A stretch of DNA of 64,000 nt from Octopus vulgaris. Taxonomy: Eukaryota. Below the pieces are notes generated by a model. It made no database searches and had not been told where the DNA came from. It saw only the letters and a program-made list of their open reading frames with translations. The translations under genes and the position numbers were made by a program. The stretch spans positions 17,050,001-17,114,000 of the forward strand of contig OX597836.1 in assembly GCA_951406725.2 (NCBI GenBank), in the 5' to 3' direction. This document shows, one piece after another, positions 5,051 through 38,720 of the stretch (the first letter of the stretch is position 1; each line of letters begins with the position of its first letter).

Positions 5051-6271
5051 GGGTCTATAATACCGTATACTTTAATATACCCACTCTGACAAATATACGA
5101 GCAGATATTTTTTTCAGATTCTCTAGTTTAAGCAGCCCATATAATCCCTCATAACTTCATTTTGGGGGAATTTACAGAAATTTTTTGCGAATTAGTTTTC
5201 TACTCACGGGAATTCATACGATTATGCAAAAAAATGTTTATAATTTTTTTAACCCCACCCCCACATAAATCCCAAAATTTCCCCGTTTCAAATTTTAAAA
5301 ATCATACAGGGTTACACAGTCGAAATATGGAATACTTATAAACAGTAGTATATAACAAATACATATATAAATAATAATCACTGGAGGTAATTTCGCCTTT
5401 ACTTTCTTTCTAACCTCAGTGAATGAAATAAGTCGTCACTAACATTACTAGCAATCAACATATTGGTGACATTACAGCTGCGTATAACAGGTTTATTGTA
5501 GCGTGTATAAATATTATACACTCACTATAATATACAGGGGAACATACAGACACGACTTTTTTTGTCAGATTTATTTCTACAAACAAAAGAACGTCATTTG
5601 ATGGATTTAAACACTTGATTAAGCATTTATTAGACACGATTTGTGCAGTTTTTAATGATCTGAACCCGTATGGACGAAGAACAAATGAGTGGTGGTGGTC
5701 CACATTAGATAGAACGGAATAATGTGGAGTATCTCTTTATTCTGGAGGTATCTGTGTATATAGTTAATTACATTAATGATTATAATAACAGTAGAAATAA
5801 GACGAATATCCCAGCTTGGAGTCTGGAGCTTCTGATTCTGATTTTTCAAGAGGAACCGAACCGCATGTCAAAGAAAGAACGGCAAGGCATGGACATTACA
5901 TGAATATATACACCAATGTAGAATAATCGTTGGGTTTATCGAGCAGAAGAAGTGTCGTAGGGGATAAAAATGGGTCCGCGGCAGCAGTGAAAGGCGAGAT
6001 AAAAATTGATTAAGGACGTTAAAGAGATGTAAAAAGGCTGTTCTTACCATGATGGAGATGTCGCAGAAAATGCGGCGATTGATGAGAACCACGAGAAAGG
6101 AAGAGTGCGCATGTGCTGCTACCGGTGTACACGCTTCAAACTACCTCTATGTCATAATATCCGACAGAGGTGAGAGATTGTGTATGTATATATATATATA
6201 TATATTGTATGTGTGTATATATATATTGTGTATGTATATATATATTGTGTATGTATATGTATATATATATA

Positions 6272-24022: not shown

Positions 24023-24260
24023 TTGGGCTTGGAGTTACTGACACAGCACAGAAAAGGGTCATCAATGTCATCACTGATGCTGCAGAGGAAGCCACAAGGT
24101 GGCTTTAGATAAAGAGGACAAACCAGTGGATTTGCTGCAGTTGGGATCCCTAGCTAGGGCTTGACCAAACTATTGCTGGGTCAACTGGGCAAGGTGGGGG
24201 TGGGGTCTGATGATGAAAGACCCAAAACATCACAGAGCATCTGTGAGACATATCTTGAAG
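24023..24260 (+). mobile_element. 3' fragment of a HERO-like (restriction-like-endonuclease) non-LTR retrotransposon
   Basis: GLGVTDTAQKRVINVITDAAEEATRWL*IKR resembles the C-terminal 'AAE.ASRWLWIKR' motif of HERO-type elements (recognised from memory). Lies next to an (ATT)n tract. Confidence 0.6.
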
Positions 24261-24483
24261 AAACTGTGTGTGGAATTGATGCTTGGTTTGCGGGAGAGGA
24301 GCGATTAGGCTCTGGAATAAGAGAAAAATCTCTTTGGTCATGTATTTCTTTGCGAACTGAAGAGGTGTTGGGGTGAGGTGTGTGTGAATGATGTGGGGTG
24401 GAATTTGGTTTTTAATTAAAAAAAAAAATTTTTTTTTCTGTATTTCAGTTTCAAAAAGAATGCTTTAAAAGTGTCTATGTGTA

Positions 24484-25934
24484 CCAGATTGAGTCAAAAG
24501 TTTTTTCAGATTTTCACAGATGATTTTGGGTTACTTGTATCTCCATGTTATATCATTAATTTGATACAATTTGTTGTCCAATTGTTGGATATAAACATTA
24601 AGTTTTTATTCTTTATTTTACAGCTTTGATAATGAATGATGAAAAAACTACAATTGGGGGCCAAAGGACTGAGGGCAAGGGCAGCAGTAAAAGAAATTAA
24701 CGATGTGGAAGGCCCAGGAACTGCTAACGAACACACGAGGCACAAAACTGGATCAGACATTTTAAGGGAGGTGACACAAAGGTTAGGGTGCCCAAGGTTA
24801 GGGAGACCTTCAGTTGTGGAAGATGAGGTCTTGCTTGAAGGGTTGAACAACAACCAAGCACAAGCACTTGTACATTATCAGCAGAACTTGGTCCTCCGCA
24901 AAGCACTATTAATCAACACCTCCCTAAGTTTGGCCTTGTGAATAGACACTGTTAAGAAGTTCCTCACGACCAGGCTCGATGATGTGTGGACATTTGCAAG
25001 CAACTGCTGGCAAGTCCTCAAAATGCCTATTTTTGGCATTGAACTGTAAGTGGGAATGAAAAATGTATCTATTTTTGTAATCCTAATAAGAGAAATCAGT
25101 GGCTTTGTTCCAGCCAGGCTTCAGAACCTGTTGACAAACAAGAGCTGTTTAAACAGAAGGTCATGATGTGTGTTTGGTGGAATTTTGAGGGGGCGTTACA
25201 CTCTGAGGTTGTCCCACATGGTCATGCTGTGAATGCTAACTTTTATGTTCAACAACCTCAGTGAGTATATAATGCTTTGAAAGCCCACTATCAAGCATTG
25301 GTCAATCAAAGATGTGCACCCCTAAAGCATGATAACACCCCAGCTTATACTGCCAATGTAACCAGACAGAAACTCGATGGGCTTAAGAAGGGGGCGAGCT
25401 GGCAGAAATGCTTAGTGGTATTTCATCTGCCGTTACATTCTGAGTTTAAATTCTGCCGAGGTCGACTTTGCCTTTCATCCTTTCGGGGTCGATAAATTAA
25501 GTACCAGTTACACACTGGGGTCCATATAATCAACTTAATCCCTTTGTTTATCCCCTTGTGGGTAATAAAGAAATAAGAAACTCGATGGGCTGGAAGTGCT
25601 GCCTCACTCTGCCTACAGTCCACCATAAATCCTTAAAAATGTTTTAGCCCGAAGGGCACGACCATGCTGGGGCACCACATCTTTTCTGAACCGTGGCTCA
25701 TATCCTGCACGGACGGAGGTTCAGCAATGTAGATGAGGTTGAAAACGGGTGCAGGGAGATTCTTTGCCTCTAAACCATCCAAATGGTATAAGCATGGAAT
25801 TGAGCTTCTGGCACAACAATGGCAACAACAGACAATAGAATATGATGGGATATATTTTGATGAATAAATGCTTCACGTATGTAATTTGTTTGAAATAAAG
25901 CTTAAAATATGAAAAAATTTTTGACTAAACCTGG
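24484..25934 (+). mobile_element. Full-length but inactivated mariner element with TIRs and TA target duplication
   Basis: TA|CCAGATTGAGTCAAAAG at 24482 pairs with ...TTTTTGACTAAACCTGG|TA at 25936. Transposase remnants AAVKEINDVEGPGT, PRLGRP, KVMMCVWWNFEG, HDNTPAYTA, PHSAYSP. SINE inserted at ~25384-25578. Confidence 0.9.
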
Positions 25935-32480: not shown

Positions 32481-33561
32481 TAACCAGTGTATATATATAT
32501 GTATATATATATTAACCAGTGTGTATGTTAGTGTATGTCAGAACATTGTTACATAGGAAAAAGGGAAAGATTAAAACTTGTTAACATTTTTTTTTTTTTC
32601 TGCTCAGATAAATATTCCACTCACTGTTTCGTTGTTGTTTACATGTAGCCATGACAACAAATCCTTTGTGTAGGGAACAGTTTAGGGGGGGTGGTCAGGA
32701 AAAAAAGCAAAAAAAAAAAAAAAAAAAAAAAATCCTGACCACCACCACCACCAAAGTCAACAATTTTCTTTGTACAGTTTTGGGTTTCATTCTCCTTTTT
32801 TTTTTTTCTGCTCCCAGCCCCTTTTTTCCTCATAGTTTTACAGTTCAATAATGTTGTTCCTCAGCCTCATTGCTCTGCTTGCCCTCCAAGCCCCCCTTTA
32901 AAATATTCTTCTTTTAAACCCCTCCCTCCCACCTTTAAATATCACATCAGTTTATTTAGATGTGTAGGTGAAAATGCGTTGTGTATATACATACATACAT
33001 ACACATGCACTTGCATGCGTATAGAGTTGTAGATATGTAACCTCACAATTGTAGCAGTCTTTTTTCCATGTAATTTGTGTTGTGTATATATATATATATA
33101 CATACATACATATATATGTATAAATATATATATATATACATCCATACATTCATACCTATGAAAATAATATTTTATACACATGCATATAAATGTATGCATA
33201 TATATGTGCGTTTATATATTATGTGTGTGCGTATATAATGTGTCTCTGTCTGCAACATTTATATATATATATACATACATACATATATATATATACCTAC
33301 ATACATATATATATATATATAGTTATACATAAATATATGTATCAGTCTTTTATATATTTTTAAAAGATTTTACACACACATTGTTACGTATATGTTGAGG
33401 TATATGTGTAAAGTTATGTATATACAGATATGTATACATGTATGTGTGCATGTGTGTATATGTGGCTGTATATATGCATGTGTATGAGGAATGAGTCGAT
33501 GAATGTATATGATTATGAGATGTCAAAAACAGTAAAGGTCCTCCCCCCCTGCTGGTCACTT

Positions 33562-36348
33562 TCATTTGACCAGTCCAGCTTTTTTGGCCTCTGTCTCATA
33601 TATCAACAGTCTCCACATCTTGACCACAAACACCTCTGCTTCCTCGTCCAGTACCATTGCTACATCGTTGAGAATGTTGGCAGGGGTGCTACGGCCCACC
33701 ACTTTCTGGCAGATGAATTCCGTGAGGGTTGCTTCTTCTTCTCCGATGTATTCGACAATCTTTTTATTAACCCAGGGTTTGATGCGTTTATCCATGAGGA
33801 CCTGGTCGACGATGCTCCAGTCGAGGGAGTAGGCAAATAGTTCCTCCTTGCCGGTCGGAATCTGTTCGATGAGTTGTTTGATCTGTTGTCGTTTCTCTTC
33901 TATGGAGGTGGCCGCCTTTTTCTCGGATTTTTCTTCCTCGTAGTCCAGCGGCACGAGCTTGCGTTTACGCTGCGAGGCCTCCGAGCAATAGTCGTCTTGG
34001 CCAAACACATCTCCGATAGTGATTTTTTTCCGCTTTGTGTTAGACAAATCGTTGGGACTGTCAGAGGTGCGTAGCTTCATGGCGTTGAACCCAATCTTCG
34101 TGGTAACCTCTTCTTTCACAGCCGGACTGAAAACTGGTTGGGTGTTCATGATTCTGGCAGGACCCGCATTACTGTTATTGTTTTTGTTGTAGCTGTTACC
34201 AGCATCAATTTCCGCATCTTCTCTTTCGCTCCCGCTGTCTCGATCGTCGCACTTTCCATCGGCACCAGTTTTTGAGATCTTTCCCTTTCTTTCAGTCTGC
34301 GACAAACTGTTCGAATGGGAATTATTTACTTTTGAGGTGACAAGTTTCAAAGTGGCCTGCATGCGGGGCAGGGTTGATTTCGAGTCTTCAGATTTCTGTT
34401 CCCGCTTATGCGAAGTGGTTGGGGAGTTGTGACGCAGTTTGGGTTCTGGTAAGGGGGGAAGTAAGTGCAGTCGAGGTTTCAAATGCTCGTCTCTCTCTCG
34501 TTCCATTTTCGCAATTTCACCGTCGGGGTCAGCATGACCTTCTTCCATTAATCTTCGCCTAATTTCTTCCAGCTCTTCCTTCTCTCGTTGTCGGTCCCTT
34601 GCGTCGTTTTCCTTCTCTTTTTCTCGTTCTTTCAGCCGTCTGGATAAAGCGCTGCCTCGGTAAAACTTAGGGTCATCCCTTAGGTCATCATAATCTTCCA
34701 AAAACTCTTTCAGCCTCCGTGCCTCTTTACTTTCCTCACACTTCCGAGCCTCTTCTCGATCTTTCTCTTTCTCATATTCCTTACTCTTCTTCCGTTCCCG
34801 GGCTTCCCAGTTCCGTAATCTCTCCTGGTACGCCGCCTCTTTCTCACGCAATTTCTTCTCCAGTTTCCTCCTCTCGTAAGCCTCCTCTTCGTCCTCAAGG
34901 TCCCAATCTCTTCCTCGTTTGTCTCCGTCTTTCGATCTTTCGCGCGATCTGTCACACGACCTTTCGCGAGAGCTGTCTCTCGACCGGTCCCTGCGCGATC
35001 TCGAGCGTGACCTTGACCGGGAGCAAGATCGCGACATACTCCTCGACCAGCTGCGTTCCCTGTGTTCCCGTTCGTAAACCTTCCCCTTGCGCATCTTCTC
35101 CCTTCGCACGCGTTCGTCGTGAGCACGTCTATCTCGCTCTCGATGCCTCGACTTCTCACTGCTTTCATCTTCCTTGTGCAAATCTCGGAAACTCTTTATC
35201 TCACGGTTAATTATTTCCTTCTTCTCTTCTTCCAGCTCCATATCGTCCAAACCTTTATCGGCCTGCACCTTTTCCTCTTTACTCTTCTTCTGAGCCTGTT
35301 TGGCCTCCTTCTCTTGATCAACAGGTGGCTCTTTTGCAAGTTCCTCAGCATAGTCTCGCATGATTGCTTCCAAGCCGGCTCTCGTCACACAGTCTTCTCT
35401 CATGGTTATCTGATCCAAATCATTGACCCTAGCTTCCTTGCTAACTTGTTCCTGATATCGTTCTTCAGTTTCTTCGGCTGGAAGTTTTTCCGATTCTGTC
35501 GACGGTTTCTCCGATTCTTTTAGAGATTTCTCTGTTGTTGATGATGGAGATTTCCCAGTTTTATTACTCGCATCCTCAGAACCACTCGCAGACTCCTTGC
35601 TCCTCTCTCCATCACCTTTCTCTTTGGTTTCTGTCTCATCTTTGGAGGTGGTCACTTTTGGAGTTGTCTCTTTTGAAGATGATTTCTTCTGGCTCTGGTT
35701 CTGCTCTAACCATTTATTAAGCTCAACTTTCTTCTTAGCTTTGTATTCATCCAGCAGCGCTTTGGTTTTGGCATCGACTTTGACGACAAGTTTCTTGTCA
35801 TTAATCTGCCATTCGTTTAAAAGACGAATACACCTTAATGTAGACTCGGGCTCCTCGTACTCACAGAATCCGAAACCCTGTAACTTCCCCGAAGCACCCT
35901 GGACTCTTTTCCAGCTAAGAATGTTCCCGCATCGTTGTAACATTTCCCTGATCATTGTATCAGGCGACCGCTCGCTTATGTTGCCCACAAACACCGTGGT
36001 CACGGGCGGCTTCTCTTCTTTCGTAAATAATTCTGTCTTTGGAATCTCCTGAGGGATCAGCTTCTTGTGATTCTGCTGAAGATGTTTTTGGCCGGAATTG
36101 AACATGGGAGTTGTGGCAGAGGTGATGGAAAGATGATGGGTGGACGAAGACGACACTGAGGGAACAGCGGCGGCCAGGGCCGCAACAGCTGTTGTAGTGG
36201 ACGTTATGATGGGCCTCATGACGGAGGCTGGCGGGATCATACTCACACCCATTGGAACCATCCCCATGGGTGTGAAAGTGTAACTCTGTGTCATCATGCC
36301 TGGCGCCATGTGAGGCAAGCCTATAGGAGGACCAGGCGGAAACGACAT
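33562..36348 (-). CDS. RBM25: RNA-binding protein 25 homolog (splicing factor), single-exon CDS, 928 aa
   Basis: Uninterrupted 2787-nt ORF. Pro/Met-rich N-terminus MSFPPGPP; RRM with RNP2 TVFVGNI and RNP1 QGFGFCEY (LSWKRVQGASGKLQGFGFCEY); RE/RD/RS-rich middle (YERRKLEKKLREKEAAYQERLRNWEARE; EFLEDYDDLRDDPKFYRGSAL); C-terminal PWI domain (IKPWVNKKIVEYIGEEEATL...VLDEEAEVFVVKMWRLLIYE). Start context ACC-ATG. Confidence 0.97.
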   Translation of the reverse strand: MSFPPGPPIGLPHMAPGMMTQSYTFTPMGMVPMGVSMIPPASVMRPIITSTTTAVAALAAAVPSVSSSSTHHLSITSATTPMFNSGQKHLQQNHKKLIPQEIPKTELFTKEEKPPVTTVFVGNISERSPDTMIREMLQRCGNILSWKRVQGASGKLQGFGFCEYEEPESTLRCIRLLNEWQINDKKLVVKVDAKTKALLDEYKAKKKVELNKWLEQNQSQKKSSSKETTPKVTTSKDETETKEKGDGERSKESASGSEDASNKTGKSPSSTTEKSLKESEKPSTESEKLPAEETEERYQEQVSKEARVNDLDQITMREDCVTRAGLEAIMRDYAEELAKEPPVDQEKEAKQAQKKSKEEKVQADKGLDDMELEEEKKEIINREIKSFRDLHKEDESSEKSRHRERDRRAHDERVRREKMRKGKVYEREHRERSWSRSMSRSCSRSRSRSRSRRDRSRDSSRERSCDRSRERSKDGDKRGRDWDLEDEEEAYERRKLEKKLREKEAAYQERLRNWEARERKKSKEYEKEKDREEARKCEESKEARRLKEFLEDYDDLRDDPKFYRGSALSRRLKEREKEKENDARDRQREKEELEEIRRRLMEEGHADPDGEIAKMERERDEHLKPRLHLLPPLPEPKLRHNSPTTSHKREQKSEDSKSTLPRMQATLKLVTSKVNNSHSNSLSQTERKGKISKTGADGKCDDRDSGSEREDAEIDAGNSYNKNNNSNAGPARIMNTQPVFSPAVKEEVTTKIGFNAMKLRTSDSPNDLSNTKRKKITIGDVFGQDDYCSEASQRKRKLVPLDYEEEKSEKKAATSIEEKRQQIKQLIEQIPTGKEELFAYSLDWSIVDQVLMDKRIKPWVNKKIVEYIGEEEATLTEFICQKVVGRSTPANILNDVAMVLDEEAEVFVVKMWRLLIYETEAKKAGLVK

Positions 36349-36361
36349 GGTAGTTATGTGT

Positions 36362-36532
36362 CTGTTAGGGAGATCGTAAACAATCGAGGAAAGAGATCAA
36401 AGGAATGTGAGGAGAGAGGTACTAACGAGAATGGTCGTGCCCCAACTATATTCCAACAAAACAACGTCTCTTTAAGGACACCATACAAGGAAGTGAGGGC
36501 AGCGAAAATCAATCCAGAAGAGAGAGAGACAG

Positions 36533-36563
<31 letters not shown>

Positions 36564-36635
36564 CAGAGAGAGAGAGACGAGGCCACCACTGCGAAGCGTT
36601 ACCGCTTTTCCCCTCCCCTCTTTCCTTCTACTCAC
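36362..36635 (-). other. RBM25: 5'UTR intron of RBM25 (GT-AG, 274 nt)
   Basis: Minus-strand donor TCG|GTGAGT at 36635. Pyrimidine-rich tract ending ...ctccctaaCAG at 36362, 13 nt upstream of the ATG. Confidence 0.75.
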
Positions 36636-37001
36636 CGACAGCAATTTTTCACAGCTTCAACACTTTTTTTTTTGTTAAGCAAGTCTTTCTACTATCATCA
36701 CCACCACTAACACCTTCAACATCGTTAACACCAACCACACTCTTTAAAAAAATTTTTTTCACTCCAACCCCCCCAGACGTTCATCTATTTTGAAAGCAGA
36801 TCAGATTTTCTCTTCGCTTCTGCATCTTTTTCTTTTAGTTTCTATTTTTATATCTATCATCGTCATCATCATCATCATCATCTTCAATAACAAGAAGAAC
36901 AAGAAAAAAGAGGAGGAGAAAAAGCAAACATAAGTCTTGTCGTCAGCATCATATCGATACCTCACCTTTCCCGCAAATAATTCTTGTTCAAAACCATGTT
37001 C

Positions 37002-37042
<41 letters not shown>

Positions 37043-37471
37043 AATATATATATATATTTGCGGGAGCTTGGTTTTATATTTGTATATATAATCCCTGCTG
37101 TTTCTTTTTTAAATTTCCTTTTTATGTTTCTTTTCACCTGTGGAAGCAAATGTTTACCGCATCTTTAAATTATTACGGTCCGGTTATTTTATAAATAAAC
37201 ACTCCACTTGTTTTTATATGCATGTATATATATAGAGACAATATATATACATGTAATTCAGTTTATTACGTAAAATCCCCCAGAAAGACGGTAGATAGTC
37301 ATGTGGTACGGTATGGTGTTATATTTTGCTTCTCTATGTATGTAAACGTATGTATATATAGCAATCGTAATCCTATGTGTTGTTGTTTCCTTGTGCAAAC
37401 ATCCAATGTGCTCCGTTTCACAATGTAAATCCAATGTGGTCCGTTACAAACCTTGCTTGTTATATATATAC

Positions 37472-37512
<41 letters not shown>

Positions 37513-37847
37513 CGCACAGTTCGGATAATTCCTTGTTAACGTATCTTGTTCTCCTTATTTTTGTTATTTTTTTCTTCTTTTTTTAAACTGTTTTCCTTTT
37601 TTTTTTTTTTTTTTTTAAAAAAAACAACAATATTTACATGGTTATTATTTATAGCTTTATGTGTTTCGAGATTCTGTTTTTCCAATATTTATACGTATAT
37701 CAGGTAATCAGTTCAAAACAAGACGATTCCTTTCGTTGCTACGTGTTATCCATCAATTTATCGGAAATCCCCCCGCGGGGGTGTATGTTTTTTTTTTTTA
37801 CTTTCCCCCTCTTTGCTTTTTAAAAAAAAAAAATCCAAATATGTATA

Positions 37848-37908
<61 letters not shown>

Positions 37909-38169
37909 TTATGTATGTATATATATATGTATATATATATATGTATGTATATATATATATGTATGTGTATATATATATATATATGTATGTATATATGTAT
38001 AATGTGTGTGTGTGTGTGTGTGTATATATAGCGTTGTTGTTTAAAATCCGTTATTTCCTGCTCCAACAATGAAATCCGTATCCGTAGTTTTACAAAAAAA
38101 AAAATAAACCTGCCGTATATATATATATATCTTCTACACACTTATTTCTGTTTATACATAAAAAAAATC

Positions 38170-38720
38170 TACGAGCAGCAGGCAAGGCAGTAAAGGTGGG
38201 CCGCCAACCGTGGCCCACGTAAAAACCTGGTCTTGGCCTAAATGCGTTACGGCAGCTCTCGACGTACACAATAACGTACAACGGAAGTCGTCAACTTCGG
38301 TGTCTTCTTTCACACGAGAGCGGAACTGACGCCATCACATACTTTCCAGTTGTCAACCATTTCCTTTTTTTCTCTCTCTCTCTTTCTCGTGAAATTTTAT
38401 TATATTTGCTGTTATTGTTATTGTTATTATCTCCTACAACGTCTGGCTATCATCTCCTTCTGCTTATGTGATTATATATTTCCTATAATGTCTCTCTGCC
38501 GTAGCAATTCATGTTTTTTTTTTTTGTCGTCTTCCCCCCACCTCCGTACTTTTCTTTCTTTAAACTTGGCGAGACACGATTTGACGTCACTTCCGGTCCG
38601 GTTTCGTTTTACCCTCCTCTCTCCTCCCCCTCCTCTGTCCTCTCTCTTCTCTCTTTCTTTCTCTCTCTCTTCCTTTTTTTTTTTTGCCTTTTTTCTTTCT
38701 ATACGACGCGGAAACGAAAA
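38170..38720. promoter_or_regulatory. CpG-rich promoter-like region upstream of RBM25 with overlapping ETS-CRE motif
   Basis: TGACGTCACTTCCGG at 38582-38596 (full CRE overlapping an ETS site), GCGGAACTGACGCCAT at 38320-38335 and CGGAAG at 38282. Non-repetitive, CpG-rich, bounded by (TA)n tracts. Confidence 0.6.

Follow-up and report, generated by a model that had tools for sequence, protein, structure and literature searches.

The analysed window, a 64,000-nt stretch of Octopus vulgaris genomic DNA, carries on its minus strand a gene for the splicing factor RBM25 (Table 1). As an earlier note on this DNA had claimed, the coding sequence is intact and confined to a single exon, one stop-free frame running through all 928 codons. 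The predicted protein has the architecture typical of RBM25/Snu71, with an N-terminal RRM, a central Glu/Arg-rich region (2 of its 75 conserved columns changed) and a C-terminal PWI domain. Association of RBM25/Snu71 with U1 snRNP, PRP40 and LUC7 is known for yeast, worm and human, according to the available portions of the published accounts. The window protein differs from the O. sinensis RefSeq ortholog at 13 of 928 aa and from the O. bimaculoides ortholog at 32 of 925 aa; the gene has thus already been annotated in octopuses. The coding sequence is covered by contigs of sequencing runs guessed to be RNA (run X13 fills 30 of 30 bins, with no DNA control), and the window copy is likely to be transcribed. 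No Rfam match was obtained.

Table 1. Features of the RBM25 locus (positions in the window).
Feature	Position	Strand	Evidence
RBM25 coding sequence, single ORF, 928 aa	33562..36348	-	ORF list and orthologs
RRM domain, aa 119-187	35788..35994	-	Pfam PF00076, E 1.2e-9
PWI domain, aa 855-921	33586..33786	-	Pfam PF01480, E 1.2e-12
Conserved Glu/Arg-rich region, aa 485-630	34459..34896	-	75 columns kept in at least 90% of 22 outgroup proteins
Junction after Lys392, uninterrupted here	35172..35173	-	regulated intron and stop-codon exon at this site in other lophotrochozoan RBM25
GT-AG flanked leader segment, 274 nt (proposed 5'UTR intron)	36362..36635	-	splice signals; read through in contigs
Putative upstream ORF, 12 codons, inside leader segment	36446..36484	-	sequence
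Candidate promoter: non-repetitive, CpG-undepleted stretch	38035..38616	.	composition

Protein searches of the same genome revealed a second RBM25 gene on another chromosome (contig C5; L010:3989-6376), which is likewise intact and intron-free, and forms one ORF of 795 aa whose product is identical to an O. sinensis protein. The two coding sequences differ in GC content at third codon positions (GC3 of 0.54 for the window copy and 0.34 for the C5 copy), and the window-type copy contains approximately 130 additional low-complexity residues, spread over three regions (proteins P0001, P0002, P0123 and P0124). An A-rich run (L010:3945-3965, minus strand) is situated about 25 nt past the stop codon of the C5 copy; A runs are common in this genome, and the copy is too old for this one to be called a poly(A) scar.

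A search for an intron-containing paralog, proposed in the earlier note, gave this second intron-free copy instead. Four queries covering three conserved regions (the PWI, RRM and Glu/Arg regions, and a mussel C-terminal protein) each returned the same two loci, both in one open frame, and none of them detected a parent with introns. In the same assembly, family searches recovered short exons for presenilin and for two LUC7 genes, so a split RBM25 parent should also have appeared, though these controls were profile searches whereas RBM25 was searched in single-protein mode. Both LUC7 genes keep their introns, which indicates that, among these U1-associated factors, intron loss is specific to RBM25. 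The second copy, the failure to find a parent and the age of the genes, which predate the divergence of octopods and cuttlefish (see below), had all been overlooked in the earlier reading.

The leader segment upstream of the ATG had been described as a canonical GT-AG intron of the 5'UTR. The signals are indeed present: the donor, GTGAGT, is at 36635, and the acceptor ends at 36362, 13 nt upstream of the ATG. The motif GT[AG]AGT occurs once in 36349-38700, at the proposed donor (window rate, 0.58 per kb), and the acceptor is one of three pyrimidine-rich acceptors in this interval (rate, 3.9 per kb); judged by these frequencies, the pair is somewhat better than chance. Routine splicing was not borne out. 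In all three runs covering the acceptor (X1, X5 and X13, which come from three studies and are RNA by guess only, with no DNA control), one contig spans position 36362, extending beyond it by more than 31 letters in either direction. The predicted 36636/36361 junction occurs in none of these three runs, nor is there any other joint or loose end at the acceptor; this comparison concerns the acceptor side, and is based on contigs, which drop rare forms. None of the 24 sequencing runs available is recorded as RNA; run X16 gave no contig here and, like runs with next to no matching words, did not enter the comparison. It had also been suggested that the leader intron is an ancestral one that was spared. 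The C5 copy, inspected by eye, has no pyrimidine-rich acceptor immediately upstream of its ATG, and the absence of a visible counterpart mildly favours a segment that was gained rather than spared. The segment is single-copy in the genome.

The candidate promoter presumably resembles promoter motifs. On the other side of the gene, an AATAAA motif (32951-32956, minus strand), located about 600 nt past the stop codon in non-repetitive surroundings, is a candidate poly(A) signal. Inspection by eye revealed neither a poly(A) tail nor a target-site duplication at the window copy, in agreement with the earlier observation, and neither would be expected at such an age. None of six variants is a sense-strand A-to-G change, and hence there is no sign of RNA editing among them.

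The intron-rich EIF3I gene also begins in the window, with a candidate first coding exon at 6050 (6048-6090, minus strand) that contributes only the ATG and has a strong donor; exon 2 lies about 10 kb from this candidate (L027/L028). A possible non-coding exon on the opposite strand ends near 6170. Nesting of RBM25 within the first EIF3I intron was considered and rejected, because the candidate ATG exon is located downstream of RBM25. Pfam scans at curated cut-offs covered 191 frames of the window and 300 of 464 flanking frames. Matches above the cut-off comprised transposon pieces, an ORF with a DUF1751 domain, which we take to be TMEM115-like, and an ORF with a DUF7083 domain; the EIF3I exons scored under the whole-protein cut-off, and no host gene around RBM25 was found in the scanned frames. 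A remnant of a Mariner-type transposase is present at 24028-25393 (plus strand; Pfam Transposase_1, E 1.5e-15). Elsewhere in the genome, single open frames contain the whole TMEM234 profile (L045, contig C3), an MRPS12 match (L018, C16) and the N-terminal part of DUF1751 (L042:372-1151, C5); a further housekeeping gene without introns may be TMEM234. Downstream of each RBM25 copy, CpG depletion extends over some 30 kb (window 1-33000; C5 128,032,000-128,063,000); across the window copy and upstream of it (33500-64000), CpG occurs at about the expected frequency. Exon scans of the depleted flanks identified no convincing gene, and these zones possibly correspond to a long 3' extension or to an unseen convergent gene.

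If a single-exon RBM25 were the normal molluscan state, nothing would have been lost, and according to the earlier note the novelty would then disappear. No observation in favour of this reading was found, and the outgroup genes refute it; it retains practically no probability. They have at least 12 coding introns, at aa 104, 138, 157, 343, 365, 392, 509, 564, 614, 760, 849 and 898, and all 12 positions are uninterrupted in both octopus copies. The introns are evident from isoform or annotation pairs in bivalves and gastropods (oyster, Mya, Aplysia, Littorina and Patella), a chiton, a nemertean and amphioxus, and two metagenomic contigs (L110 and L108) carry RBM25 coding introns in genomic DNA. 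Coding introns are also marked by single-exon fragments running into intron-like tails.

The intron after residue 392 deserves separate description. Among 166 proteins that contain both the RRM and the HK motif (window aa 392), 146 are full length and 20 are devoid of the PWI domain. A foreign tail starts directly after HK in 17 of these 20; the search behind most of the truncated proteins spanned aa 84-400, which disfavours truncations upstream of 392, and the comparison for the pile-up is with ends located further downstream (3 of 20). The tail begins with Val in nine proteins, as retention of a GT intron would give, and with Met or Ile in eight, as would an extra exon starting with AT. The Met/Ile-tailed proteins are bivalve, gastropod and annelid-like sequences.

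Four of 78 metagenomic loci carry the post-392 intron, two of them genomic and two spliced upstream yet retaining it. Common to all four is a 3' splice site 262-327 nt into the intron, around which four of the six possible pairs align in blastn (E 2e-8 to 0.03). In L047, L055 and L104 an in-frame stop lies within the exon, and in L110 the exon, 97 nt long with a guessed donor, would shift the frame. In L055 it encodes Met-Cys-Trp-stop, and protein P0348 ends in precisely this tail, its preceding residues all matching the locus (271 of 271); the exon-included form is thus seen directly. Productive, retained and exon-included forms all occur within one bivalve-like cluster. Outgroup RBM25 genes show two features of a poison exon, namely a premature stop or frameshift and conserved splice-site sequence. 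This element is absent from the octopus RBM25 stretches searched, and both copies correspond to the productive, exon-skipped mRNA. In other lophotrochozoans the exon is likely to tune RBM25 levels via nonsense-mediated decay; we infer both the decay and the control of the exon by RBM25 itself from the behaviour of other splicing factors. With decay understood by this analogy, the suggestion that octopus RBM25 has lost splicing control in its coding region holds, and the missing stop-codon switch can be placed after residue 392.

Among the best 20-25 matches of larger literature searches, which covered mainly freely accessible main texts (supplements and most subscription papers lay outside), no description was found of the lophotrochozoan RBM25 exon or of cephalopod RBM25 gene structure. 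The available portions of two papers linking RBM25 to intron retention contain nothing on the introns of RBM25 itself. The stop-codon exon of lophotrochozoan RBM25 appears to be new to the literature.

The two octopus copies have 522 residues in common, 66% of the length of the shorter protein. Synonymous sites between them are saturated (pS 0.92), and dN in the domains is 0.11-0.17. Trees were built from 41 proteins (quick version) and from 14 proteins (careful version). Cephalopod RBM25 forms one clade (support 100) nested within molluscan RBM25, and this position identifies the octopus genes as orthologs of metazoan RBM25. In both trees a clade of the C5 type, Argonauta and cuttlefish is the sister group of the window type. 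A clade of octopod copies alone was rejected (AU test, p=6.5e-6, 14-protein tree), and the duplication is therefore older than the split between octopods and decapods (cuttlefish), dated to approximately 270-290 million years ago. The branch preceding the duplication has a length of 0.17, and each copy subsequently accumulated about 0.3 changes per site.

Purifying selection on the window copy is apparent from its conserved domains and from a reading frame that is intact in O. vulgaris, O. sinensis and O. bimaculoides. Compared with O. bimaculoides, 5 of 396 residues differ in the domains and 27 of 416 in the linkers. Four of the five variants within the coding sequence are synonymous (p=0.045 against transitions). 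Six of the 75 conserved residues of the Glu/Arg region are changed in the C5 copy, all six in common with cuttlefish; the difference from the window copy is not significant (p=0.29), nor is the asymmetry in rate at conserved sites in general (11 versus 19 of 258, p=0.20).

Protein searches detected the window type in Octopus-like sequences only, with no match of this type from decapods, Argonauta or Nautilus; its loss in decapods and argonauts is possible. No Nautilus RBM25 sequence of either type was found, and intron loss may have come before or after the duplication. The decapod-type protein is encoded by a single 780-aa ORF on a 50-kb ENA contig. As this ORF was called whole, whereas a bivalve gene on contigs of up to 222 kb yielded merely a 150-aa single-exon piece, the decapod gene would also seem to be intron-free.

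These data can be brought together in a scheme that we regard as probable, though with considerable reserve, namely that an ancient orphan retrogene pair, derived from cDNA of a productive mRNA, replaced an intron-rich parent and in doing so dropped the conserved stop-codon exon. That all coding introns were lost cleanly suggests cDNA of a productive, exon-skipped transcript as the source. The ancestral gene would have resembled those of the outgroups, with at least 12 coding introns and, in one of them, a cassette exon causing a stop or frameshift. In stem cephalopods, exon-skipped cDNA would have been inserted at a new site and acquired a promoter. The cDNA-derived gene would then have been duplicated (or, alternatively, a second retroposition took place) ahead of the divergence of octopods and cuttlefish, each branch afterwards diverging to the extent given above, and the intron-rich parent would have been lost. 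The proteins presumably remain U1 snRNP-associated splicing activators, as elsewhere in the family, without splicing control in the coding region.

The principal alternative, which we consider possible but distinctly less probable, is the in-place loss of all coding introns through recombination of the gene with its own cDNA, followed by duplication; one of the two copies would then occupy the ancestral locus to this day, and the poison exon would have been lost equally. A single event of reverse transcription would suffice for it, with no parent to be lost separately, and the splice signals flanking the leader of the window copy agree with it, but one conversion tract would have to span at least 12 introns, and the leader intron is unspliced in the contigs and has no visible counterpart in the C5 copy. 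Candidate old neighbours do not discriminate here. MRPS12, an oyster RBM25 neighbour according to adjacent accessions and a fused model, is on C16, and presenilin, presumably a vertebrate RBM25 neighbour, is on C11, both of them off the two RBM25 chromosomes; TMEM234 is on C3. The positions of MRPS12 and presenilin fit a new site as well as in-place loss. The earlier note had offered a functional retrogene or in-place loss; the functional, mRNA-derived and intron-free nature of the gene stands, with replacement the more probable of the two routes.

An intron-bearing parent hidden in a gap of the assembly, or overlooked by the search, is improbable. Only the best candidates are scored and the exons would be short, but all four queries, one of them from mussel, led to the same two loci, and the protein collection contains just three cephalopod clusters, which match the two known types. 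Still less credible is a pseudogene reading, with the window copy as a processed derivative of the C5 copy that is recent or in decay. Within Octopus it has indeed evolved faster (32 of 925 residues differ from O. bimaculoides, compared with 4 of 795 for the C5 copy), and its type is restricted to Octopus-like sequences; the saturated synonymous divergence, the frame intact in three genomes, the conserved domains and the retention of ancestral residues where the C5 copy and cuttlefish share changes largely refute this reading. We also give little weight to a more elaborate proposal, in which coleoids lost a feedback brake on RBM25 as a U1-associated activator of microexons, the two diverged paralogs build different types of U1 snRNP, and the copy confined to octopus came under control again via the retained leader intron and the upstream ORF.

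Poison exons that are deeply conserved in splicing factors are generally taken to be indispensable. If replacement by orphan retrogenes is correct, coleoid cephalopods would be a natural knockout of such an exon across a whole lineage, and the factor concerned is an activator of microexon splicing in worms. Two points then become testable: whether the exon serves as a feedback loop for RBM25 in the remaining molluscs and in annelids, and what took its place in octopus.

In the available portions of the reports on orphan retrogenes (PMC3548309; PMC4772013, including RNF113), the defining situation is the same as in octopus: an intron-free copy of a multi-exon housekeeping gene under purifying selection, with the parent absent. 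Octopus RBM25 conforms to it in the absence of introns at the 12 positions, the failure to find a parent, and the intact, selected frame. It differs in having two ancient copies, in being from an invertebrate, and in the conserved stop-codon exon among its losses; insertion at a new site is, for the octopus loci, a proposal. A close parallel, judged from the accessible part of its description, is amphioxus SYCP1 (PMC5803294), another invertebrate gene with a large single coding exon and an upstream 5' non-coding structure, which replaced a multi-exon parent, as proposed here for RBM25. SYCP1 is single-copy and its multi-exon 5'UTR was proven by RT-PCR, whereas RBM25 is present in two copies and its leader intron is unspliced in contigs; retrogenes often acquire 5' non-coding exons, according to the same source.

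The protein encoded by C. elegans rbm-25 has an RRM, an R/E/D-rich region and a PWI domain, as in octopus, and activates microexon splicing together with PRP-40 (bioRxiv 10.64898/2026.09.14.751627, as far as available). The worm gene is multi-exon and contains, after the RRM, a 22-nt microexon with a predicted premature stop, for which its authors suggest autoregulation; the octopus copies have no such exon. SR proteins, LUC7L, RBM39 and SMNDC1, in the parts of the literature at hand, have cassette exons with a conserved splice site and a premature stop, like the exon of lophotrochozoan RBM25; theirs are autoregulatory, as the RBM25 exon may be. Octopus RBM25 is without its poison exon, whereas both octopus LUC7 genes keep introns. 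The event is thus of a known kind; what is new is the loss of the poison exon.
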